DNA of 64,000 bases from a virus (IMGVR_UViG_3300020469_000008:32001-96000), one strand, 5' to 3'. Positions 9,023 through 24,641 are shown, counted from the stretch's first letter. A program made the numbers and translations. The notes: generated by a model from the sequence alone, not told the origin.

Positions 9023-9851
9023 TAAAAAAAGAAACGTAGGTATTATATACGAGCTTTTATTAAATCATATTAGTACAAAGCTTCTGGAAGGGAAGAAAAG
9101 AGAAGCAAAAACTGCAACTAAATTAATTGAAAAGCACTTTAAAAAAGGCACAGAGCTTTACAAAGAATTTAGGCTTTTTAACGCGCTTGCGAAATCAGAT
9201 ATAACACAAACACATGTTGTTGCATCAATATTAAATGAGGCAAAAATTGCTAGCAGAAATCTTAACGAAAGACAGTTAGAACGTGAAAAATCATCGCTAC
9301 TTAAAGACATAAACTATAAAATTAATGAGAAAGATTTCTATTATAGAAGTATTGACAATTATCGCGATCTAGGTTTAGTTCAACTGACACTCAATGAGTG
9401 GCGCAAAGATGATAGAGATATTAAGCGTCTAGTCGACTTCGAAACACGATTGGGTGCATTAATGTTAAAAGAGAAGAATAAAGTAAATGAGCAAAAGTAT
9501 GATGCGTCTCACAGTGACAGATTGGTTTTAAAGATCATGACTGAAAAATTTAATAAACGTTACGGTGAAGAACTAACCAGAGATCAACAAAAAATTATTG
9601 AAGGTTATGTTTTCTTATCTGATAAGGAACCTGACAATTTAAAAAAGTTTTTTGAAACCAAAAAAGAAGAAGCTTTGAACAGTTTAGAAAACTTTGAAGA
9701 TATATCTGATAATCGTTACTTGTTATCAAAATTGGACGAAGTTCGAAAGAAAATTAATAATTTACCCTCTAATGACATTAACGATGCAAATGTTGTTAAG
9801 TTTTTGACTCTTACAAAGATGATAAATGAAATTAAAAAGGAGATATCATAA
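9012..9851 (+). CDS. conserved head-module hypothetical protein (between portal and protease)
   Basis: 279 aa helical ORF starting MKHNKKRNVGIIYELL; overlaps the portal end; GAGGA RBS. Confidence 0.7.
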   Translation: MKHNKKRNVGIIYELLLNHISTKLLEGKKREAKTATKLIEKHFKKGTELYKEFRLFNALAKSDITQTHVVASILNEAKIASRNLNERQLEREKSSLLKDINYKINEKDFYYRSIDNYRDLGLVQLTLNEWRKDDRDIKRLVDFETRLGALMLKEKNKVNEQKYDASHSDRLVLKIMTEKFNKRYGEELTRDQQKIIEGYVFLSDKEPDNLKKFFETKKEEALNSLENFEDISDNRYLLSKLDEVRKKINNLPSNDINDANVVKFLTLTKMINEIKKEIS

Positions 9852-9852
9852 T

Positions 9853-10455
9853 ATGTCTGCAGAATTAAATGTTTTAAGAGAATGGACACCTATTTCTTGT
9901 TCAAAGGAAATGTTAAAGGAATCCCGCGAGCAATATGGAAAAATAATGTTGACGGGAATCATCCAAAAAGCAAACACCTTAAATCAAAATGGGCGAGTAT
10001 ATCCTAAGCCGATTCTAGAAAGAGAAATAATGAATTACCAAAAGATGATTCGTGAAAATAGAGCGCTGGGAGAATGCGATCATCCTGATTCGTCTGTAGT
10101 TGAATTAAAAAATGTATCACATATTGTGAGAGAAGCTTACATGCAAGGTGATGATGTCTATGGTAAGATAGAGATACTAGACACTCCTAGCGGTAAAATT
10201 ATACAGTCTTTAATTGAAAGTGGCATTACGCTTGGTATTTCATCACGTGGCGTAGGCTCAACTGTATCACAGGGTGGTAATCAGGTTGTACAAGACGATT
10301 TCCAGTTAATTTGTTTTGATATGGTGTCTGAACCGTCAACTCCCGGTGCATTTATGCTAAAGGAGCACAAAGTTTTAAGAAAAGATTTAGATAAAATTTT
10401 TAACCAAACAGATAAAATCGATAGAATGTTTAATGAGATTCTGAGGTGGGAATGA
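9853..10455 (+). CDS. prohead core protein protease (T4 gp21-like)
   Basis: GIIQKANTLNQNGRVYP, ALGECDHP, NVSHIV, LGISSRGVGS, FDMVSEPSTPGAF; start placed at ATG 9853 after GGAG. Confidence 0.93.
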   Translation: MSAELNVLREWTPISCSKEMLKESREQYGKIMLTGIIQKANTLNQNGRVYPKPILEREIMNYQKMIRENRALGECDHPDSSVVELKNVSHIVREAYMQGDDVYGKIEILDTPSGKIIQSLIESGITLGISSRGVGSTVSQGGNQVVQDDFQLICFDMVSEPSTPGAFMLKEHKVLRKDLDKIFNQTDKIDRMFNEILRWE

Positions 10456-13894: not shown

Positions 13895-15847
13895 ATGAGT
13901 AAGTCATTTACTTTGAATCAGTTGACTGAAGGTATCCGTGATCGTCACGTAGGCCAAGAAGCAACAAGAATTCAAGAAAAGTGGACCAGAACTGGTCTTC
14001 TTCGTGGTCTACAAAACCACGCTCGCGAAAACATGTCACGTTTACTTGAGAACCAAGCAGCTCAAGTACTTCGTGAAGCAAACACCTTAGGTGGCACATC
14101 TGGTGACGCTGGTCGTGTTGATGGATTTTCAAACATCGCATTCCCAATCGTTCGTCGTGTATTTGGTGGATTAGTTGCAAATGAATTGGTATCTATTCAG
14201 CCTATGTCTCTTCCAAGTGGACTCTTGTTCTACTTAGATTATACATACGGTTCTGATGTAGGTGGTGATGCAACTGCTTCAGGAAATGCATTGACAGCAA
14301 CTGGTGGATCAACTTATAATCAAGGTGATTCTATTTACAACAACCCAGGTGGAGCCGGTGTTCGTACTGGTTCTGACGCAACTGGTGGTCAATACGATCT
14401 AGTTGGTTCTGGTTACTCTAAAGTGCACGGTAATGTTGCATTTAGCGCAACTGGTAATGCTCTTAACGGTGCAATGGGTGGAGCTGCAAATCAATCTTTT
14501 ACAATTGCAGCAAATCTAACTACAAGTGGTGCTGATGGTAAACTACTTCATTTTGATCCACAACTTTCACGTGAAATCAGTGAAGGTACTAACAACTATC
14601 AAGTTCTTTTCCTCTCTGCTTCTCTCTTGCGCGAAGCTTCTGGAAGACAAAGAAGAGTTGATCCTACTTTGATTAAAGAAGTTGCTCTTTATTCTGAAAA
14701 CGGTACTAATGGACGAGGTCCCGGTAATTTAGTATCAGGACTGACTGTTCCTGGTAGTAACATTCAAGGTGGTAGCAACATTTGGAACGTTAGACGTCTT
14801 AATGAGCTAGGTACTTTGACACACAGTGCTGCTGGTACAACTTTCACTCCTGATCCTTTCGCATCAGTAAGTGCAACAGGAACTGTACTTAAGACAATCG
14901 TACAAGGTGCAGCTACTTCGATGGCAGCTGTCGATACAGGATTAAACTTGTCTGCTTCATTCCCAGTAGCTGATCAATTGTCTGAATCTGGAGACGCTGA
15001 TACTGGTTCTGTTGTGGTAATTCCATCATTCGAATCAAACTTTGCTTCTGAACCTACACCAGTAATTCCAGAAATTGATATCAAAATTGAGTCAATTGCT
15101 GTTACAGCTACAACTCGTAAGTTAAGAGCTCGTTGGTCACCAGAACTCGCACAAGATCTTAATGCTTATCACTCAATGGATGCTGAAGTTGAATTGACTC
15201 AAATCCTTTCTGAGCAAATCGCATTAGAAATTGATCGTGAAATTCTTAATGACCTTCTTGTTGAAGCGAAAGGTGCTAACTTCTTCTGGTCACGTGCTCC
15301 TGGTAAGTTCGTTAACAAGAGAAGTGGTGTTGCTGAAAACTTGGCGTCATCTCTTTCAACTGGACCACAATTTACTGGTACAGTTCGTGAGTGGTACGAA
15401 ACATTGGTTGAAACTATCATTGACGTTGCTAACGAAATCCATAGAAAGACTCTTCGTGGTTCTGCGAACTTTATCGTAGTTTCACCTGAAGTTGCTACTA
15501 TCTTCGAAGCTTCTGTATTGTACAAGCCAAGTGTTAAGATCGATGGTCAAGGTCAAGTTGCCTTAGGTAGCATTGGTGCTGAAGCTATTGGTTCTCTTTC
15601 TAACAGATTTACTGTTTACAAAGATCCTTACTTCCCACGCAACAAGATTCTTGTAGGATACAAAGGTGGTTCATATCTTGAGTCTGGATACGTCTATGCT
15701 CCATATGTACCGTTGATTGTAACTCCAACAATCTTCGCACCAGAAGACTTCACACCAAGAAAAGGTGTAATGACTCGTTACGGTAAGAAAATGGTTCGCG
15801 CCGACTTCTACGGAACAGTTACTTGCTTGGATATGGATATTATCTAA
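13895..15847 (+). CDS. major capsid protein (T4 gp23-like)
   Basis: AFPIVRRVFGGLVANELVSIQPMSLPSGLLFYLD, RKLRARWSPELAQDLNAYH, YAPYVPL, FTPRKGVMTRYG; followed by a strong terminator. Confidence 0.95.
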   Translation: MSKSFTLNQLTEGIRDRHVGQEATRIQEKWTRTGLLRGLQNHARENMSRLLENQAAQVLREANTLGGTSGDAGRVDGFSNIAFPIVRRVFGGLVANELVSIQPMSLPSGLLFYLDYTYGSDVGGDATASGNALTATGGSTYNQGDSIYNNPGGAGVRTGSDATGGQYDLVGSGYSKVHGNVAFSATGNALNGAMGGAANQSFTIAANLTTSGADGKLLHFDPQLSREISEGTNNYQVLFLSASLLREASGRQRRVDPTLIKEVALYSENGTNGRGPGNLVSGLTVPGSNIQGGSNIWNVRRLNELGTLTHSAAGTTFTPDPFASVSATGTVLKTIVQGAATSMAAVDTGLNLSASFPVADQLSESGDADTGSVVVIPSFESNFASEPTPVIPEIDIKIESIAVTATTRKLRARWSPELAQDLNAYHSMDAEVELTQILSEQIALEIDREILNDLLVEAKGANFFWSRAPGKFVNKRSGVAENLASSLSTGPQFTGTVREWYETLVETIIDVANEIHRKTLRGSANFIVVSPEVATIFEASVLYKPSVKIDGQGQVALGSIGAEAIGSLSNRFTVYKDPYFPRNKILVGYKGGSYLESGYVYAPYVPLIVTPTIFAPEDFTPRKGVMTRYGKKMVRADFYGTVTCLDMDII

Positions 15848-15952: not shown

Positions 15953-16270
15953 ATGATGAAAACCACAAGAAAGCAGCTACAAAAACTAATATTAGAGGCA
16001 ATGACAGGTATAGCATCGATGCCGTCAGCAGAAGGTGTTGATCAAATAGAAGAAAACCCAATTGTCAAAGATATTAATATTGAAATGATTGAGCAAATTT
16101 TAAATGAAGGCATGATAGCAATAGGTAATCAAGGTAATGACTACTATGCTGATACAAAAGCAATGATTGATAATGACAATACTATAATTCTTACTGCAGG
16201 ACCTCTAGATACACCATTTGCTGAAATAATAGTAAATTTTAAAGATTTAAGTCACATCACAAAAACTTAA
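15953..16270 (+). CDS. leader-bearing hypothetical protein (putative head internal protein)
   Basis: GAGG RBS; MMKTTRKQLQKLILEA; ATATTTA upstream. The track's longer start runs through the terminator. Confidence 0.7.
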   Translation: MMKTTRKQLQKLILEAMTGIASMPSAEGVDQIEENPIVKDINIEMIEQILNEGMIAIGNQGNDYYADTKAMIDNDNTIILTAGPLDTPFAEIIVNFKDLSHITKT

Positions 16271-16354
16271 AATTATTTTACATTACTTCTTGTTGGTATA
16301 GTGTATTACGTGCATATCGCACAATTCACACATTACATACACACAGGAGGGAAT

Positions 16355-16567
16355 ATGAGTGGAAATCCTTACAGCCTGCGAGCAGGTTTATTGTCACAAG
16401 CAGAAAGTATCTTATCACATAGATATCATTCAGAATACGAAAGAATTAGATGGTTATGTGACAGAAACTTAATCGATCCAAAGACAGTAACGTGGCCAGA
16501 ACCACCAAAGTCTGATGACATTATTGCTGAAGCAGAAAAATTGTATAAGTTTGTACAAACAAAGTAA
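16355..16567 (+). CDS. small hypothetical phage protein (NPYxLR...EAEKLYKFV type)
   Basis: AGGAGG RBS before ATG 16355; 70 aa. Confidence 0.7.
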   Translation: MSGNPYSLRAGLLSQAESILSHRYHSEYERIRWLCDRNLIDPKTVTWPEPPKSDDIIAEAEKLYKFVQTK

Positions 16568-16616
16568 GAAAAATCATTTCTATCTAAATAATTAGTAATG
16601 ATATAATGGAGTTATT

Positions 16617-17075
16617 ATGCGTCTAGATAGAAACAGACTAAGAAAATTAATCTTACAAGAAATGACCAGTGCGATGGAATATGGCTCACGTGGGGAAGAT
16701 TCTGGCACCCTTGTTCGACCCCCGGAGCGTAGTAAATTCAGCACAGGTACCGGACCTCTTGGCAGACAAGAGATGAAAATATCTCCTGAACAACTAAGAT
16801 TGCAACAACAAAGTTATAGGTCAAATTTTCTACCGGCAGAAGAAGTAAATCCTGAGTTTGTCAGGCTTGTTGATGAAGCATCAGACGCGATATATGAGTT
16901 AGCTGAATTTATTGGTGGAACCGGGATACGCCCAGAAGACTTTCCAAAGTTCTATGAAGCTTGGCATCCATGGGAATCAGTAATGTCAAAACTACGTAAT
17001 CAGTATGGCAATAAGGTTGATGTTGAACTTAATAGTATGCGAATGAACCCTGATAAGATCCCTGTTTTTGAGTAG
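16617..17075 (+). CDS. leader-bearing hypothetical protein (putative head internal protein)
   Basis: MRLDRNRLRKLILQE; GGAG RBS; ATAATTA at 16588. Confidence 0.7.
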   Translation: MRLDRNRLRKLILQEMTSAMEYGSRGEDSGTLVRPPERSKFSTGTGPLGRQEMKISPEQLRLQQQSYRSNFLPAEEVNPEFVRLVDEASDAIYELAEFIGGTGIRPEDFPKFYEAWHPWESVMSKLRNQYGNKVDVELNSMRMNPDKIPVFE

Positions 17076-17134
17076 TCATTAATAATTAATAACAAGCTTT
17101 GCAAATAGAGTATAGTTACTAATAGGAGGTAATT

Positions 17135-17791
17135 ATGCTCTTTTTATATTTTCTATTAACATTTGCAACTGGCCAGGAACCAGAAGTACCAGAAGTTACC
17201 GCAGATGAAACAATTGTTGTTGAGGCACATAGAGATTACGAGGTGTATGTTGCACCGACAGTTATGGATATTCAATCGACTGAGGTTGAAGCTGTAATGG
17301 CAAAGAAAACTGTTTTTAGTTATTCATCACGTTATGCCAACGGTGCAAAAGTTAAGAACGAAAGAGGTACAGGTTACGAAAACGTAACTATAAATCATAA
17401 AATAAAAGTATATGATGAAGACACAATAGAATATGTTTGGGACAACTGCAATTACAAACGTGAACCTAAGAAGTGTGCATATCAAAACAATCACATGTTA
17501 TTAGAAACAATTGTGACCGTTGATGATCATCAAATAGTTGTTAATATGATACTATACGATTCTGATTTGACTGTATTGGGATCGTCTGTTTATACAAGTG
17601 ATTCTAGGATTAGTTGGATTCGACAACAAGAAACAACAGTTATTCAACAACAAGGGATGATGGGTAGCCAAACAATGATTCATCAGCCCAAGGAAGAGTT
17701 ACCACTAAAATGGCTAATTCCTACAAATTTACTTGATAAACATATTTGGCAAGCTAGTGCGCTACTTTGGACAGGCGTAAGACTTAACTAA
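17135..17791 (+). CDS. exported protein with N-terminal signal peptide
   Basis: Short hydrophobic N-terminus MLFLYFLLTFATG then acidic QEPEVPEV; AGGAGG RBS. Confidence 0.7.
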   Translation: MLFLYFLLTFATGQEPEVPEVTADETIVVEAHRDYEVYVAPTVMDIQSTEVEAVMAKKTVFSYSSRYANGAKVKNERGTGYENVTINHKIKVYDEDTIEYVWDNCNYKREPKKCAYQNNHMLLETIVTVDDHQIVVNMILYDSDLTVLGSSVYTSDSRISWIRQQETTVIQQQGMMGSQTMIHQPKEELPLKWLIPTNLLDKHIWQASALLWTGVRLN

Positions 17792-18125
17792 TATATTTAC
17801 GCCAAGCGTGTCGCTTTCTTTTTGCTAAATAATCTTCGTCGTACATTTTGCGGTATGCTTCTTGTTCGAAAGGTATGTTCATGTAAGCTTCATCGTTGGT
17901 CATTCCTTTGACTTTACCTTTAAGCCAATACCATACATAGAGAATATAAAAGAATACCACCAGAAGTTCTTTCTGCTGTTCTATGTGTATTATTTCATGT
18001 CTAACAGTAACATCAGACATTTCATCTCTAGAAATAATAAAAGGAAAAAGAGTAATTGCACCAATATTAATAAATATTGAAAGATAAACAGGTAACTTGC
18101 TGTTTTGGATGATTATTGGTTTCAT
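17784..18125 (-). CDS. small membrane-associated HExxH protein (putative zinc metallopeptidase)
   Basis: AAAGGAG RBS on the minus strand; RHEIIH, hydrophobic segments, PFEQEAY. The only credible minus-strand gene. Confidence 0.75.
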   Translation of the reverse strand: MKPIIIQNSKLPVYLSIFINIGAITLFPFIISRDEMSDVTVRHEIIHIEQQKELLVVFFYILYVWYWLKGKVKGMTNDEAYMNIPFEQEAYRKMYDEDYLAKRKRHAWRKYIS

Positions 18126-18193
18126 AGATTTCTCCTTTAACTTTGATAAGTGACAGTATAATTATACATTGTCATACAAAAAATACGGAGGTT

Positions 18194-18397
18194 ATGATGC
18201 CAATAAAAAAGACAGCAGCAGAAGAATGTTGCGCAAAATGTGAAAAAGATGTTGCAGCACTCAGAAAAGAGATTGCTGCGCTTAGAAAAGAGCTTGCAAA
18301 GAAACCTGCAGGTGGTGCAGACCCACGAGTAGATGCGATTGTGCAGTTTTTAAAATCTAATTTTAACCAAAAAGCAGCAAAAGCAGGAATTAAATAA
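18194..18397 (+). CDS. small coiled-coil protein with CCAKC motif
   Basis: GGAGG RBS before ATG 18194; heptad repeat VAALRKEIAALRKEL. Confidence 0.7.
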   Translation: MMPIKKTAAEECCAKCEKDVAALRKEIAALRKELAKKPAGGADPRVDAIVQFLKSNFNQKAAKAGIK

Positions 18398-18490
18398 TAT
18401 ATATAAGCAGGCCCGGCACACAGCATAAAGGCGACCCCACCGTCGTGTCGGAATCTTGTGGACAAGTATCTCAAAATTAAGGAGGAAATT

Positions 18491-19000
18491 ATGCCAAAGG
18501 TAACATATACAAATTCGAAAGGATTGTTTCAAGAAACAGGTACAGCGGACGTTAATCTGTCCGGACAAGGAGCATTGTTCGGTCAGCTTTTAAAAATCAA
18601 GACTGTCACAGCCACAACAGTGTTGCGCGATACAGACTCAGGAAAAATTGTTTTAGTTAATCCAGCTGGGACCACACTACTTACATTACCAAGCGTGGCA
18701 AATACAGGATGGACTATCACAATAATTCTTACAGAAGACGCAGCTGGATCTGATCAAGGTATGGGACAAAAAGTTAATATTGACTTAGGTTCAGGCGCTA
18801 ACCTAGCCAATATCGGACAAATACACGAAGTCGATGGGGCCGCCGGCGATTACGCAGTAGCCAATGATGACTTTATTAATTTCTCAGCTAATGCTTCACC
18901 TGGTGACAGAGTCGATATATTTTCAGACGGATCTAGATGGCACATTTACGGTCTAGTAAAGGATGCTACAGAGGCTGTATTCAACACAGCAGCTGGATAA
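18491..19000 (+). CDS. putative capsid decoration/structural protein, paralog 1
   Basis: AAGGAGG RBS; MPKVTYTNSKGLFQE; 169 aa, same length as and colinear with the next gene. Confidence 0.7.
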   Translation: MPKVTYTNSKGLFQETGTADVNLSGQGALFGQLLKIKTVTATTVLRDTDSGKIVLVNPAGTTLLTLPSVANTGWTITIILTEDAAGSDQGMGQKVNIDLGSGANLANIGQIHEVDGAAGDYAVANDDFINFSANASPGDRVDIFSDGSRWHIYGLVKDATEAVFNTAAG

Positions 19001-19012
19001 TAGGAGATTAAC

Positions 19013-19522
19013 ATGCCAAAAGTAACGTATACAAGTTCGAAAGGATTATTTCAAGAAAGCGGAACTGGTGAAGTAAATTTATCAGGTCAGGGTGTTTTGT
19101 TCGGTCAATTAGCAAAAACTGAAGCAATTACTGCTACTACAGCGTTGGCGTCAACTGATACCGGTAAAATATTTTTTGTCGATCCAACAGCAGCAACATT
19201 AATTACTCTACCTGCGCTAGCCTCTTCTTTAAAAGGTTGGTATTGTCGATTTGTGCTCACGGAGAATGAGACAGGAAACGCACAAGCAATGGATGCAAAA
19301 GTTAATATTGACTTGGGCGCTGGAACAGCAAACGTCGGTCAACTTCATGAACTAGACGGCGGGGCTGGAGATTATTTGGTCTCCGGAGACGATTTTGTAA
19401 CATTCTCTGCCAATGCATCAGCAGGAGACAGAGTTGATATCTTTACAGACGGTAATAGATATTATGTTTACGGTTTTGTCAAAGAAATTGCTGAATGTAA
19501 TTTTCATACCGCAGCTAGATAA
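19013..19522 (+). CDS. putative capsid decoration/structural protein, paralog 2
   Basis: MPKVTYTSSKGLFQE; shares KVNIDLG, GQxHExDG, DDFxxFSANASxGDRVDIFxDG with paralog 1. Confidence 0.7.
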   Translation: MPKVTYTSSKGLFQESGTGEVNLSGQGVLFGQLAKTEAITATTALASTDTGKIFFVDPTAATLITLPALASSLKGWYCRFVLTENETGNAQAMDAKVNIDLGAGTANVGQLHELDGGAGDYLVSGDDFVTFSANASAGDRVDIFTDGNRYYVYGFVKEIAECNFHTAAR

Positions 19523-19542
19523 TATCTACATCCTCTATAACT

Positions 19543-19568
19543 AAAGGCACCATTTCGGTGCCTTTTTT
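19543..19568 (+). terminator. intrinsic terminator
   Basis: AAAGGCACC-ATTTC-GGTGCCTTT followed by a T-run. Confidence 0.85.
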
Positions 19569-19644
19569 ATTTTGTAACAAAGCAAAACTAGTGAGACCTT
19601 TGAGCTGTAATTGACCTACTTATACACATCTCTCGGAGATCGAT

Positions 19645-20061
19645 ATGAAGTTAGTTTTTGCTTTGTTTTGTTTAGTCGCAGGACATCTATTAGCGTGGTT
19701 GCAATTAAACGGTCCAATCTTCAATGACTGGTGGAAAGATAACATTTGGATAAGTGCACTATGTATTTCTCCAATGATTTTCTTTTTTAGCATGACATAC
19801 TGGAGTATCACTTACGAGTGGTTGCAAGCTGTGTGGTCAGTTAAATTTATCGCTTATGGCGTAAATATTGTAGTTTTTTCAATTTGTGCCTACTATTTTC
19901 TTGGTGAATCGTTATTTACTATTAGAAACGTTGTTAGTATCATATTTGCAACGTTAATGATTTTATCACAAGCATATTTACCAAAGACGAGTATATTCGG
20001 TGCCGGACAAGAAACCCCAGAGAATGTCGCTGTTAGCGATGGTGTTGATCATTCTGATTAG
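19645..20061 (+). CDS. four-helix integral membrane protein (DMT/SMR-like size and topology)
   Basis: About four hydrophobic segments; YYFLGESLFTIRNVVSIIFA resembles DMT C-termini; GGAG RBS. Confidence 0.6.
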   Translation: MKLVFALFCLVAGHLLAWLQLNGPIFNDWWKDNIWISALCISPMIFFFSMTYWSITYEWLQAVWSVKFIAYGVNIVVFSICAYYFLGESLFTIRNVVSIIFATLMILSQAYLPKTSIFGAGQETPENVAVSDGVDHSD

Positions 20062-20166
20062 CATTTGGTTAACTTATGAGTTTGTAAGGTATGATGTTCA
20101 ATGTTTCTTGAGAAAATACAAAATAAATAAGATAATTAGTAGTGTCTATAATAAAGGAGTAGAACT

Positions 20167-20463
20167 ATGTCATCAATTAATAGAGATAAAATCAGAAAAT
20201 TAATTTTAAAAGAGTTTAAAATGATGGGAATGGCTGATATGGGCCACGGCGGGATGAAGCCAATGGGAATGGTGCACACTGTTGATCACGGCCATGAAGC
20301 TAGTCACGGTCATTCTGTGATGAAATCAGCTAAAAGTTGTGTATCGCGCGAAGATTGCTGTGCTGCAATTATGTGTTTGGTTGAATGTTGCGAATGCCCA
20401 ATCACAAAGCAAGTAATTATGGAATGCTGCCAAGAAATCATGTCTGGTCAACACGATCATTAA
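20167..20463 (+). CDS. leader-bearing Met/His/Cys-rich protein
   Basis: MSSINRDKIRKLILKE; His-rich linker; DCCAAIMCLVECCECP...ECCQE. Confidence 0.7.
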   Translation: MSSINRDKIRKLILKEFKMMGMADMGHGGMKPMGMVHTVDHGHEASHGHSVMKSAKSCVSREDCCAAIMCLVECCECPITKQVIMECCQEIMSGQHDH

Positions 20464-21839
20464 TGAAAATTACTCGACGCCAGCTCCAAATGTTAATACA
20501 GGAGGAGATACGACAGGTGAAACCGGGTTGTTATAAAGTATACCCGAAGAAACCAAAGCGTGGCAAGAAGCGTCGTAAAGCATTATCTAAAAAGTGCAAG
20601 ACTAAGAAAGCAGCAAAGAAGCATTTGGCAGCTATTGAAATTAGTAAATCGATGCGTGAGGATGACAATCCTTGTTGGGATGGTCACAGGCCAGGTGCTC
20701 AAACCGGACAAAAAACAAAAATCGGAAAGAGTGGAAATCGCGTTGCAAATTGTGAAAAGATAAAAGAATCAATTCTTTTAGAGTCCAAATATGAACAACT
20801 CATATCACAATTACCTGGGTTGTCGTTAGTTGTTACTGAAGATATGCCGCGCGGGTTTGCATTAGATTTGCAATACGATGATTACATGATCGCATCTGCA
20901 GAGATAGTAGCTCTTTCTGTAAACCCAGGTGAACCATGTATTCCTGAGACAATGTCAGTTAGTACTATTTATACCTCGCCAGATTATCAGAATTTAGGGA
21001 TTGGTGAACTTTTACTTGATCTGATATTCTACTATGCTAGCACGTTAGACGGAGGAAAAGGACGAGGTATAACAACAGATTTGCGAGGTGGTAACACACC
21101 AATTATTAATTACATAATTCAAAGAGCATTACAAGATCCTGCATACTACAAGCAGACCACCAAAGCCGGTAATGACGAGATGGACTTTTTTGAAAAAACT
21201 AGCGACCCGGATGATGATTGCTACTCCGAATTCCTTGACGGTAAAGGTATATACTGGTTTATTAGTCAAGGTATGTCCGAAGAAGAAGCATTCGAAAAAG
21301 TTGAAATGACAGATGGAGATTTAGGCACGACTAGCTCTTGGCGAAAGAGAGGTATTGAATCTATAAAGCCTATATATGACATGCTCACACAAAGACAGGG
21401 TGCTGATGTACTTTATAGACCAGTCATTAGAAGTCGACAGTTCCAAGATGCTTATCGTAATACACCTACTCCTGAAGAAATACGTTCATTTCAAAGAGGT
21501 AAGAAACTAAAAGAACGCAAAGAACCAAGAAAAGGCACCGGTAAAAAACCAAAAGGTAGTACTAGGCGATTATATACCGATGAGAATCCCAAGGATACTG
21601 TCTCTGTTAAGTTTCGAACTAAGTCTGATATACAGGACACTTTATCAAAAAAAAGCTTTAAGAGTAAAGAACATAAGCGGCAGTCGCAGATAATTAATCT
21701 CATACATCAGCGCGTTCGTGTTGCTTACAAAAATGCAAAAGATCCTGCAACGAAAAAACGCTTAAAGCTTGCGTATGATTATGCTAAACAGAGAAAAGAA
21801 GCCAGTAAGCTTAAAACAAAAAAAATGAGGAAGAAATGA
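20463..21839 (+). CDS. leader-bearing multi-module protein with a GNAT-like domain
   Basis: TAATG coupling at 20463; MKITRRQLQMLIQEE; GNAT motif A-like IYTSPDYQNLGIGELLLDLIF; basic modules on both sides. Confidence 0.65.
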   Translation: MKITRRQLQMLIQEEIRQVKPGCYKVYPKKPKRGKKRRKALSKKCKTKKAAKKHLAAIEISKSMREDDNPCWDGHRPGAQTGQKTKIGKSGNRVANCEKIKESILLESKYEQLISQLPGLSLVVTEDMPRGFALDLQYDDYMIASAEIVALSVNPGEPCIPETMSVSTIYTSPDYQNLGIGELLLDLIFYYASTLDGGKGRGITTDLRGGNTPIINYIIQRALQDPAYYKQTTKAGNDEMDFFEKTSDPDDDCYSEFLDGKGIYWFISQGMSEEEAFEKVEMTDGDLGTTSSWRKRGIESIKPIYDMLTQRQGADVLYRPVIRSRQFQDAYRNTPTPEEIRSFQRGKKLKERKEPRKGTGKKPKGSTRRLYTDENPKDTVSVKFRTKSDIQDTLSKKSFKSKEHKRQSQIINLIHQRVRVAYKNAKDPATKKRLKLAYDYAKQRKEASKLKTKKMRKK

Positions 21840-22342
21840 AAATATCAAAAAAATACCTGAGAAGATTGATAAAAGAATCGATTAACGAGTCCAACTTACC
21901 TCCGGGAACAAGCCAATCAGATATCGATGATTATTATTATGATGGCGATGATGAGACTAGACAGACAGGATTATCAATTGAAATGGCTTTTTATGATCCT
22001 TCTCATCCTCTTTTCAGAGGCTCACCGACAGGTATGTACGGCGATATTGAATTTTCTGATTACGGTGCTGACAGTGCTGATGAGCTATCTGAAGAGCAAT
22101 ATCGAAAAATAGAAGCTGACGTTATGGCTATCGTAAATCATCCAGCATCTAGACTTGAAGCCAACGAAATATATGAAGCTTCGCAGGAATTTATCGATGC
22201 AATGCAAGGAAACAGTAGTAATACAGGCACGTACTTTTATCCTGTGTTCGAAGAGGATGATAGTTACGATGGCCCTGATGATTTTGATTATGATCCTTAT
22301 GAAACTGCAGGTAATTTTGGACCAGATATGTTTTCAAGGTAA
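21836..22342 (+). CDS. leader-bearing very acidic protein
   Basis: MKISKKYLRRLIKES; Asp/Tyr-rich body; ATGA overlap. Confidence 0.7.
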   Translation: MKISKKYLRRLIKESINESNLPPGTSQSDIDDYYYDGDDETRQTGLSIEMAFYDPSHPLFRGSPTGMYGDIEFSDYGADSADELSEEQYRKIEADVMAIVNHPASRLEANEIYEASQEFIDAMQGNSSNTGTYFYPVFEEDDSYDGPDDFDYDPYETAGNFGPDMFSR

Positions 22343-22351
22343 GCTTAAAAT

Positions 22352-23152
22352 ATGAAAGTTACACGACGTAAACTTAAAATGATTATTGAGTCTTTCCTTC
22401 ATGAAGAAAAGGAAAAACTTGAGAAAGATCACGGCAAAAAATATGTTTGCCCAAGCTGTGGTCATGTTCATGATTCTAAAGAAGATATTAATGCCCTCTG
22501 GTCAGGAAAAAAGTGTGTAAAGTGCGGTACAAAATTTGACCTAAAGACCGGTAAAGTTCCATCAGGTAAAGGCAAGGGGCAAAAGTGGGGAATTCATGCT
22601 AATACTAAAAGTGAGTCAAAATTAAGAATGCTTCGCGAAAAAAGACATCGTAGAAAAAGAAAACTAAGAGAAACTGCGAAAGAAACTGAATGTCCTACAG
22701 CGACAACAGACATTAGTGTTAACACAGCTAATCGCGACCGAGCTCGCAAACTTGACTGGATTATATACGGCCCTTTAAATGTAGAATTTCCGGGAAAGTA
22801 TTGGGAAAAGATATCAAAAAAGTGGGGAACAGACGTTGAAGCAGCAAAGAAGTCAAACTGTGGTGTTTGTGTTGCTTTTGATCGATCCCCGAAGATGGTT
22901 GATGAGTGCATACCTGCAATAACGTCTGAACCTGTTGCAGATGAGTTCGGTGTTTTAGGGTATTGCTGGATGCACCACTTTAAGTGTCACAGTGCAAGAA
23001 CATGTAACACTTGGGCAGCTGGTGGTCCGATTAAGACTGATGAAGCGTCAGGCGAATGGTTTGAACGTAATAAAGACGGTGCGTTAAAGAAAGATCCAAT
23101 CGATCCTAATATTTATAGGGACGATACTAATACTTCACAGGAGACAGAATGA
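22352..23152 (+). CDS. leader-bearing Cys-rich (zinc-binding) protein
   Basis: MKVTRRKLKMIIES; CPSC...CVKC ribbon; second domain CPTAT...YGP...NCGVCVAFD...GYCWMHHFKCHSARTC. Confidence 0.7.
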   Translation: MKVTRRKLKMIIESFLHEEKEKLEKDHGKKYVCPSCGHVHDSKEDINALWSGKKCVKCGTKFDLKTGKVPSGKGKGQKWGIHANTKSESKLRMLREKRHRRKRKLRETAKETECPTATTDISVNTANRDRARKLDWIIYGPLNVEFPGKYWEKISKKWGTDVEAAKKSNCGVCVAFDRSPKMVDECIPAITSEPVADEFGVLGYCWMHHFKCHSARTCNTWAAGGPIKTDEASGEWFERNKDGALKKDPIDPNIYRDDTNTSQETE

Positions 23153-24237
23153 AAATATCAAGAAGAAGAATTAGACAACTTATAAGAGAATCCCGCGAAG
23201 AACATATCCAGGGAATTAGAAGTAAACTAGTTAGATTAAATGACGAATTAGAAAACAGACAAGAGGCACTTGATGATTTAAACTATCAATCACAAAGTAT
23301 GATGGATTTTTATTCAGATGACCCATATGCTGGTAGAGATGAGATGATGGCCGGTGACCCGATTAGAGATCAAATATATGACATCGAAAACAAGATAACA
23401 TTGTTGCAAAATCAACTAGATGCTTTAGAAGCTGCTAATGGTGGCCCGGTAGGTCAACTACCAAGGGGTAGAATATTCGAAGAAGTTTCTGATCTGACTG
23501 ATGAAAAACAAAAAGAAATAGATGACGCAGTTGCTGATTATTTAGCCAAAGAAGGCGGAGCAGCATCTGAAGAGGGAACCGAAGATATTGTTCGTGACAA
23601 GGTTGATGGCATTGATGCAAAATCGTATCTTTCAAACAATGAAAGATTTAAGCAGCTAACAGTAAATAACGACCCAATGGACTATTATGATACAACTTTA
23701 ACTGAAGCTAGAGTCTTTATTAGAGAGAAATTAGAAAAAATTGGTTTTTACAAGAAGTACGGTTACGGATTAGATGATATACCAAACAAAACAAAAGCGC
23801 ATGACGATATCATAGGGCACACGTGACTGACCCACGTTAAGCGGAAGGATTCTGCTTTAAATGAAGTTGGTGAAGTTTTATGGCACAGCCTTGATGAAAG
23901 TGGTCACATATCTGTTTATGACGTCGAATGGTCAGACGGTACAATTGAAAGAGATATCCCAGCAATTTTATTAGAAAAAGTTAAAGATAGTAATGCTGTC
24001 GACGAGGTTCACGAGGCACACGGTGTAGACGGACATAGACTAGATTCTGCTATCGATGAGAGAAAGTACAAGAAAAAGAAAAAAACAAAGAAACGTAAAA
24101 AGAAAAAGCATAGTTTGTACCCATATGTGTTTGGGTTTGGCTATCACCACGATGCTGAAAATTATGATTATGATATCGGTGGTGATTATGGAGATTTTGG
24201 AGGCGGCTTCGGTGACGGAGGCGGTGGTGGAGAATGA
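23149..24237 (+). CDS. leader-bearing protein with in-frame TGA at 23824-23826; candidate selenoprotein (362 codons if read through)
   Basis: After the TGA the same frame stays open for 136 codons (LTHVKRKDSALNEVGEVLWHSLDESGHISVYDVEWSDGTIERDIP...GGGGGE) and ends in an ATGA overlap with ORF 24234; hairpin directly after the TGA. Confidence 0.65.
23837..23860 (+). promoter_or_regulatory. bacterial SECIS-like hairpin
   Basis: TTAAGCGGAA-GGA-TTCTGC(T)TTAA: 10 pairs, one bulged U, G-first apical loop; starts 10 nt after the in-frame UGA, loop 20 nt from the UGA. Confidence 0.55.
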
Positions 24238-24641
24238 AAATAGATAAAGATAGATTACGTAGAATTATAAGTGAAAGTATTGATGAAAATATGGGCACTG
24301 CGATGAAAATTAAAACAGATTTACTTTCAACTTATGATCGTTCGTATGTTTCACAAGCATATGAGCTGTGTGATGCATTAGGACTTGATTTTGCACAAAT
24401 GGTGAGAGAAATGTTAAGTCAAAAGATTGATAGTATAGATTTTCAGAATCACGTTCATGAATGGGTTAACGAGTTACTAGCAATTTTTCATACTGGTAAG
24501 GAAAACGACTTTTACATTGAAGATGAAAAATTCGAATCAGATGTTCAAATGGATTTTGCATTTAAAACTATCGCTGATATAACTAAAAATCTTGAAGATT
24601 ATTATGTCAATTTATTTGTAGCGATAGGTCAAGGTCGATAA
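24234..24641 (+). CDS. leader-bearing hypothetical protein
   Basis: MKIDKDRLRRIISES; GGTGGAG RBS lies inside the readthrough frame. Confidence 0.7.
   Translation: MKIDKDRLRRIISESIDENMGTAMKIKTDLLSTYDRSYVSQAYELCDALGLDFAQMVREMLSQKIDSIDFQNHVHEWVNELLAIFHTGKENDFYIEDEKFESDVQMDFAFKTIADITKNLEDYYVNLFVAIGQGR

Follow-up and report, generated by a model that had tools for sequence, protein, structure and literature searches.

The closest described counterparts of the gene reported here are bacterial genes with a SECIS element inside the open reading frame, exemplified by E. coli fdhF and the bSECIS of Zhang and Gladyshev. Such genes combine a conserved in-frame UGA with a short hairpin about 11 to 13 nt downstream that has a G in its loop; their cysteine (Cys) homologues lack the hairpin, and the RNA constrains the amino acids encoded over it. 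In the bSECIS consensus, the apical loop lies 16 to 37 nt from the UGA and has a G among its two leading bases; the GGUC loop of the E. coli fdhF element starts at a distance of 22 nt, counted from the U of its UGA. Selenocysteine (Sec) recoding is well documented for cellular genes and for a handful of host-captured poxvirus genes, and a natural phage case would, to our knowledge, be new. The poxvirus selenoproteins, GPx homologues of molluscum contagiosum and fowlpox viruses, are captured host GPx genes with a eukaryotic SECIS.

Phages offer partial parallels. In Qbeta, UGA is decoded in the structural gene A1, which gives a C-terminally extended virion protein; this readthrough inserts tryptophan (Trp) at a low rate and is not known to involve a SECIS-like hairpin. 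The T4 internal proteins and Alt are capsid cargo that carry a capsid-targeting sequence and are cleaved by the gp21 prohead protease. Basilisk-like Bacillus phages have a predicted tRNA-Sec, reported as the first such phage gene, with no selenoprotein reported (PMC6145125). A full-text literature search found no natural phage-encoded selenoprotein. The GOS selenoproteome includes three hypothetical families in which phage is unnamed, and any of these may or may not equal the present one (PMC2398784).

The gene described here lies in a 64,000-nt stretch of viral DNA (IMGVR_UViG_3300020469_000008:32001-96000; here called the window, from whose first letter positions are counted). The source record is a 202,054-bp viral sequence with 36.6% GC that is rated about 70% complete. 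It carries T4-like genes for terminase, gp20 portal, gp21-type prohead protease, gp23 capsid, a gp15-like protein, and sheath, and the phage is a distant T4-like myovirus. The gene has the following layout.

23149..24237, + strand: whole candidate recoded gene, 362 codons plus stop, with an internal UGA at codon 226; one open frame on TGA readthrough
23824..23826, + strand: in-frame UGA, the proposed Sec codon; TGA at 155 of 155 loci, a Cys codon in four distant homologues, independent runs in agreement
24235..24237, + strand: true stop TGA, overlapping the ATG at 24234 of the downstream gene (ATGA)

Standard annotation closes the gene that begins at ATG 23149 at TGA 23824-23826, after 225 codons. 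Past this TGA, the same frame continues for 136 further sense codons, until TGA 24235-24237. The first in-frame ATG, GTG, or TTG in this stretch is the TTG at 24115, leaving it startless for about 97 codons. A sequence-only reading of the window had outlined this frame, from ATG 23149 through TGA 23824-23826 and 136 codons to the ATGA at 24234, and every element of it was confirmed on the sequence. Homologues likewise close with ...GGGE directly 5' of a TGA, which calls made under code 4 overrun (P0015 reads on as GGGEWK).

The UGA is conserved across relatives. In a set that pools TGA instances from IMG/VR and metagenome scans, with Cys forms and one further locus (L084) counted separately, every one of the 155 related loci, representing 99 unique sequences, had TGA at the column. 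These came from viral and marine metagenomes, comprised two subfamilies, and extended to about 30% protein identity. Neither TAA nor TAG occurred among the 155 instances, in which the six-residue motif around the codon had sixteen versions. In IMG/VR (67 loci), the main motif was present in 40 instances, all 40 with TGA. A metagenome scan returned 80 loci, and the codon was TGA in 80 of 80; since the scan pattern lay downstream of the column, this count is unbiased at the column. In the second, more distant subfamily (...L-x-H-K-U-M-K-E-G...GKVLWHSL...), all unique sequences that we examined likewise had TGA at this position. Searches of 50,697 phage records by tblastn and megablast gave zero matches, indicating that the module is absent from cultured phages.

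When 5.8 billion proteins were searched, homologues either stopped exactly at ...IIGHT or continued as ...IIGHT-W-LTHVKRK.... We considered a Trp codon at this position and rejected it: every W form that was checked proved to be TGA under code 4, and the W appears in database homologues because gene callers applied that code. If the codon is Sec, such entries would reflect a systematic annotation error, the gene being truncated by code 11 and mistranslated with Trp by code 4.

The choice of code 4 by metagenome gene callers for several homologous contigs is also what could be said for genome-wide reading of TGA as sense, be it under code 4 or 25 or through a suppressor tRNA. Together with a nonsense mutation or a sequencing error at this position, we regard this explanation as extremely improbable. 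TGA terminated 36 of the 155 long plus-strand ORFs in the 202-kb genome, many as ATGA overlaps, and closes the candidate gene itself at its real end. Long in-frame continuations past a TGA were found in three ORFs only, and the continuation was startless in the candidate gene alone; the other two were considered as recoding and rejected, being plain next genes with their own starts. ARAGORN detected tRNA-Arg, tRNA-Gly, tRNA-Met, and tmRNA in the phage genome, and no UCA-anticodon (suppressor) tRNA was found in this approximately 70% complete genome by ARAGORN or by the Rfam tRNA-Sec model. A genome-wide code change is excluded, and the event at TGA 23824 is therefore site-specific. A scan of the whole 202 kb for a TGA followed by a hairpin and an open frame left the candidate gene as the sole credible site. 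As to the sequence itself, contigs of three independent DNA data sets cover TGA 23824 with zero differences, and 23817-24381 is matched unchanged by a contig assembled from RNA-seq data. Since the codon is kept in 99 unique sequences and in independent runs, an error or a recent mutation is excluded. The sequence-only reading had taken TGA for an ordinary stop elsewhere, which these counts uphold, and had called for a check of the TGA against reads, on which the independent DNA runs and the RNA-seq-library contig agree.

The frame downstream of the UGA is under protein-level selection and evolves as coding sequence. Codon-position variability was 0.66/0.30/1.17 in the region 3' of the hairpin described below and 0.89/0.48/1.39 upstream of the UGA. 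This likeness of the two patterns indicates that translation extends past the UGA. In addition, the small family members P0064, P0086, P0077, and P0042 and those of the second subfamily have only 25 to 45 residues before the UGA, often a leader plus a linker, which places the functional body of these proteins after it.

Translation of the downstream region would also be expected if the UGA were a true stop and the module were made apart, by termination-reinitiation or from an unusual start, with the hairpin serving coupling or mRNA stability. The codon after TGA bears on this explanation. Among members of the second subfamily, 18 unique sequences have ATG at this place, and several others have GTG, ATA, or CTG; ATG directly after TGA makes a stop-start arrangement possible there, and tight stop-start overlaps are frequent in the phage genome. 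In the main family, however, the codon was CTG, CTA, CTT, TTA, GCG, GCT, TTT, or AGT, and in the window no start follows for 97 codons. Moreover, the His two residues upstream of the TGA is kept in both subfamilies and forms one motif with the uninterrupted Cys forms, and a leader peptide with no cargo next to a cargo with neither leader nor start makes little sense as two genes. We consider separate synthesis of the module very improbable.

Downstream of the UGA, the RNA can form a hairpin.

23839..23857, + strand: SECIS-like hairpin AAGCGGAA-GGA-UUCUGCUU, 19 nt, beginning 12 nt past the UGA; supported by covariation

Of 97 unique sequences, 87 had a perfectly paired stem of 6 bp or longer, with its onset 10 to 14 nt past the UGA. 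The stem measures 6 to 8 bp and the loop 3 to 5 nt, the loop starting about 19 to 21 nt past the UGA. Among the 87 hairpin-bearing sequences there were 23 distinct stem sequences, and in all 87 a G fell within the first two loop bases (loops GGA, GGG, AGUU, GUC, GGUCU, CGUGA, AGUC, and AGGGC). Stems at the same place in relatives include GGAAGAA/UUCUUCC, GGAGGAA/UUCCUCC, AAGCUGAA/UUCAGCUU, GUGGAA/UUCCAC, ACUUGGGG/CUCCAAGU, GUACAC/GUGUAC, AAAGCUG/CAGCUUU, and GUCUG/CAGAC. When 30 sequences were aligned without gaps, 90.5% of the cells were paired, versus 40 to 59% when the partner was slid by 1 to 3 columns. Compensatory changes on both sides occurred in 7 of the 8 pairs, and none of 500 shuffles reached the observed values. 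Resampling of synonymous codons with the phage's own usage produced such a hairpin in 1.9% of trials. Third codon positions were invariant in the stem codons and free to vary on either side. By these sequence comparisons, the hairpin covaries and is kept by selection on the RNA, which constrains the amino acids encoded over it as in the bacterial SECIS genes.

The family hairpin has both the loop position and the loop G of the bSECIS consensus given above, and we take its geometry to be that of the consensus and its spacing to be that of the fdhF element in E. coli. Scanning 23700-24000 against Rfam produced chance matches only, and no Rfam family fits the hairpin; bacterial SECIS elements are thinly covered by Rfam (bioRxiv 10.64898/2026.04.03.716425).

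When 1.84 billion representatives were searched exhaustively with HMMER, distant homologues with a Cys in the UGA column were identified, namely GHSCATHV (P0100) and KHSCASHV (P0099), whose DNA reads TGC and TGT. Two further Cys forms, KHDCASHV (TGT) and KHKCASHV (TGC), came from IMG/VR. By locus, the Cys codon is TGT in L073 and L180 and TGC in L076 and L181. The hairpin was absent at the matching place in all four Cys-form DNAs. A Cys module of the form HxCATHV, which the sequence-only reading had named, is thus real but rare, and the proposal made there to look for Cys or TGA at the homologous column gave TGA mostly, the four distant Cys forms having TGT or TGC. The combination of UGA with a hairpin and Cys without one is the classical selenoprotein criterion, and the same pattern is seen in bacterial SECIS genes. 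Unlike in those genes, the Sec-type (TGA) forms here far outnumber the Cys forms.

Relatives without TGA at the column comprise four with Cys and one with Trp. The Trp form, L084, has TGG there with its hairpin intact (GGCUGAG-GGA-CUCAGCC). It was the sole return of a pattern scan of genome contigs that used W or C at the column and was blind to TGA forms. The contig has 50% GC and about 5x coverage and is binned in a metagenome-assembled genome, G001. G001, the only bacterial bin with a relative in it, contains selB, selD, and tRNA-Sec, and its own copy of the gene is the TGG form. The TGG of L084 fits a recent UGA-to-UGG change; Trp readthrough would fit too.

Conservation of the UGA by itself is compatible with Sec and with programmed readthrough alike. 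In the latter case, near-cognate tRNA-Trp would decode the UGA with some frequency, as happens in Qbeta A1, under stimulation by the hairpin, and the 225- and 362-residue products would occur at a fixed ratio. UGA is the leakiest stop, and the base 3' of it was C in 67 of the 99 unique sequences; the remainder had A (20), G (8), or T (4), so that all four letters occur, no leaky context is conserved, and context-driven leakiness is argued against. The intact hairpin beside TGG in L084, the lack of Sec machinery in the phage records and of a named host, and the still sizeable short form of the window gene are likewise in keeping with readthrough. However, the short form in many members would be a mere leader peptide of 25 to 45 residues, the hairpin-less homologues have Cys rather than Trp, and a conserved H-x-[U/C]-x-x-H fits a ligand or redox residue better than Trp. 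The hairpin also has the geometry of a SECIS, and we are not aware that stimulation of readthrough by a hairpin has been established for bacteria. The present gene resembles Qbeta A1 in the proposed decoding of UGA to extend a phage protein at its C terminus, and it differs in its obligatory covarying hairpin and in the Cys of its nonrecoded homologues. We consider programmed readthrough unlikely.

The geometry of the hairpin, the presence of Cys and not Trp in hairpin-less forms, the variable next base, and the His-flanked motif favor Sec. UGA codon 226 is probably read as Sec by way of a bacterial-type SECIS and host-made components. The gene would then yield one 362-residue protein with Sec at codon 226, and the 19-nt hairpin 12 nt past the UGA would serve as the SECIS. 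During infection, host SelB with Sec-tRNA(Sec) would bind this hairpin and deliver Sec to the ribosome, competing with release factor 2. Sec had been proposed from the window sequence at the outset, and the comparative tests support it through the retained TGA, the hairpin-less Cys forms, and the covarying hairpin. Close relatives that all had a sense codon, with an unconserved hairpin, had been named as evidence that would count against Sec; we saw the opposite, TGA at 155 of 155 loci and a hairpin that is kept.

Searches for Sec machinery in the phage gave negative results. Neither tRNA-Sec nor selD was present in the phage record, which is about 70% complete, or in five related records, including one with a completeness rating of 100%. 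For selA and selB, the search covered the genome of the window alone, and neither gene was present there. The search of the rest of the genome that was suggested with the sequence-only reading therefore returned none of selA, selB, selD, and tRNA-Sec. Matches to the tRNA-Sec model in related phages were rejected, as they are tRNA-Leu(UAA). With no Sec genes in the phage records, the phage would rely wholly on host machinery. This lytic-type T4-like phage without sel genes of its own differs in that respect from the bacterial SECIS genes. It is also the reverse of the Basilisk-like phages, having a selenoprotein candidate and no tRNA-Sec.

The nearest cultured capsid proteins are those of a Flavobacterium phage (44.7% identity) and a Microcystis phage (34.5%), which are too distant for a host to be named from them. 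SAR11/Pelagibacter, a very abundant possible host, is reported to be without selC, and Actinomarina to have a complete Sec pathway (bioRxiv 10.64898/2026.04.03.716425). The full pathway in Actinomarina indicates that Sec-competent abundant marine hosts exist.

The proposed Sec lies at the start of a small domain, which is followed by a tail of unusual composition.

23818..23835, + strand: H-x-U-x-x-H motif (His224, proposed Sec226, His229), with conserved flanking His
23833..23979, + strand: small SH3/Tudor-like beta-barrel predicted by AlphaFold2, with the pattern THV...WHSL...YDVEW.DG.IE..IP..LLE
24058..24234, + strand: Lys-rich stretch, then an aromatic/acidic/Gly-rich tail ending GGGGGE, from the translation

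In a 24-sequence alignment that included the Cys forms, the His at -2 and the His at +3 were invariant. Across the 99 unique sequences, the His at -2 was always present, and position +3 was occupied by His in main-family members and by Glu in those of the second subfamily. Other residues invariant in the U and C forms are a G, the H of WHSL, a G, and a Y. From this conservation, H-x-U-x-x-H is a putative metal-binding or redox site; it differs from the CxxU, UxxC, or TxxU motifs of bacterial selenoproteins (PMC2398784).

AlphaFold2 was run on residues 196-296, Cys being substituted for Sec, and gave a mean pLDDT of 61, with 73 to 83 in a five-stranded barrel. The barrel directly follows H-x-U-x-x-H in this model, in which the motif itself is of low confidence. 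Fold matches were to generic SH3 and Tudor domains and were weak (E of 0.005 or worse), and the ESM Atlas returned viral hypothetical clusters only. Searches of Pfam and PHROG with the whole protein and with both halves yielded no meaningful match, another difference from the bacterial SECIS genes. PF25184 was rejected as the family, since it was a sub-threshold, low-complexity match in the tail. In the proposed mechanism, Sec within H-x-U-x-x-H would sit at the entrance of the SH3/Tudor-like barrel, which bears more invariant His, and would form part of a metal or redox site.

The N terminus of the protein and the gene content of the phage bear on where the product may act.

23149..23193, + strand: N-terminal leader MKISRRRIRQLIRES, putatively capsid targeting, common to neighboring genes
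9826..10455, + strand: T4 gp21-type prohead core protease (context), PF03420 Peptidase_S77, E = 4.7e-28

Similar leaders open the ORFs at 20463, 21836, 22352, and 24234 and also the homologues. As with the T4 internal proteins and Alt, a short basic leader ending in Glu is found on otherwise unrelated proteins near the head genes, and the phage has a gp21-type protease gene. Both marks of T4-type capsid cargo, a shared leader and a gp21-type protease gene, are therefore present at the gene level. By analogy with the T4 internal proteins, they suggest capsid targeting, and we infer that the leader-bearing product would be packed into the capsid and processed there. Unlike the T4 proteins, to which it has no sequence similarity, this putative cargo has a UGA that is probably recoded.

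Taken as a whole, we lean, by somewhat more than an even balance, toward a widespread marine T4-like phage group that encodes a phage-specific selenoprotein, uses host Sec machinery only, carries the product as injected or internal capsid cargo, and employs Sec as one of the ligands of a metal or redox site rich in His. The candidate differs from the poxvirus genes in being phage specific and not a captured host GPx gene. The family is abundant in marine viromes and has no known domain, and it would combine Sec in an unusual His-rich motif with probable virion cargo. If this reading is true, no natural family of bacteriophage selenoproteins would precede it. Phages could then depend on the host Sec system and would be limited to Sec-competent hosts, and the UGA-SECIS pair would be a sequence marker for host prediction. 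Selenium supply could influence phage fitness in the ocean, tying a trace element to phage biology.

The module is not confined to one protein architecture. Among the homologues, it is joined to diverse N-terminal parts, and the Lys-rich and Gly-rich tail recurs in P0003, P0006, P0012, P0013, and P0029. The barrel also occurs as tandem repeats in the giant metagenomic proteins P0026, P0082, and P0087.

In two sequencing runs that cover the locus, X3 and X9, the assembly unitigs of several co-occurring strains merge at the UGA-hairpin segment (window positions 23802-23909), where word depth is locally higher, and split again directly after about 23870. The convergence and renewed splitting of the unitigs, together with the raised word depth, fit the view that conservation among these strains is highest in the UGA-hairpin segment. 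Among the relatives, the sole example with TGG at the alignment column of the UGA was L084:3001-3201 (MAG contig CAYTDF010000118.1, genome bin G001). Despite the TGG, the hairpin GGCUGAG-GGA-CUCAGCC is still present in this locus. The 5.5-Mb bin that holds it contains selB and selD together on one contig, and tRNA-Sec is also present.

In the homologues P0014, P0018, and P0020 to P0023, the C-terminal piece ...EKIGFYKKYSYGLDDIPNKTKAHDDIIGHT-(UGA) is joined to very different N-terminal bodies, which include a conserved domain of approximately 250 residues (LLYGILIDEH...), a DUF192 domain, and a membrane-like segment. Because the same C-terminal piece sits on different N-terminal bodies, the proposed selenocysteine module looks like a shuffled cassette. 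A Tudor/SH3-like repeat, resembling the barrel downstream of the UGA, was also observed in 6 to 20 tandem copies in the giant metagenomic proteins P0026 (2515 aa), P0082 (1456 aa), and P0087 (543 aa).

Public protein sets annotate the UGA-gene family wrongly in both directions. In metagenomes, the contigs with the UGA gene (L001 to L004, L079, and L080) were translated by gene callers under code 4, and code-4 calls also underlie many of the database sequences (P0003, P0015, P0064, and P0086). These calls render the UGA as tryptophan and read past true TGA stops, as at the end of P0015 (...GGGEWK). Under code 11, the UGA gene is instead cut off at ...IIGHT.

A common basic leader, MKI[ST]RRxLxxLIxE, opens a series of otherwise unrelated genes at window positions 15953-24641, and the same leader is found in homologues P0003 to P0023. 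Some homologues (P0008) contain a second, internal copy. The window also encodes the following prohead protease and capsid protein:

9826-10455, gp21-type prohead protease gene
13895-15847, major capsid protein of 650 residues, best Gp23-domain match over residues 386-641

The position of the Gp23-domain match within the 650 residues implies that the capsid protein has a large N-terminal extension or insertion relative to T4 gp23.

Outside the window, ARAGORN predicted a phage-encoded, one-piece tmRNA in the same genome (G000:C1:151825-152161), with the tag ANNNNFYDVALAA. Approximately 29 kb from the tmRNA lie three tRNA genes:

180970-181794 of G000, tRNA-Arg(tct), tRNA-Gly(gcc), and tRNA-Met(cat)
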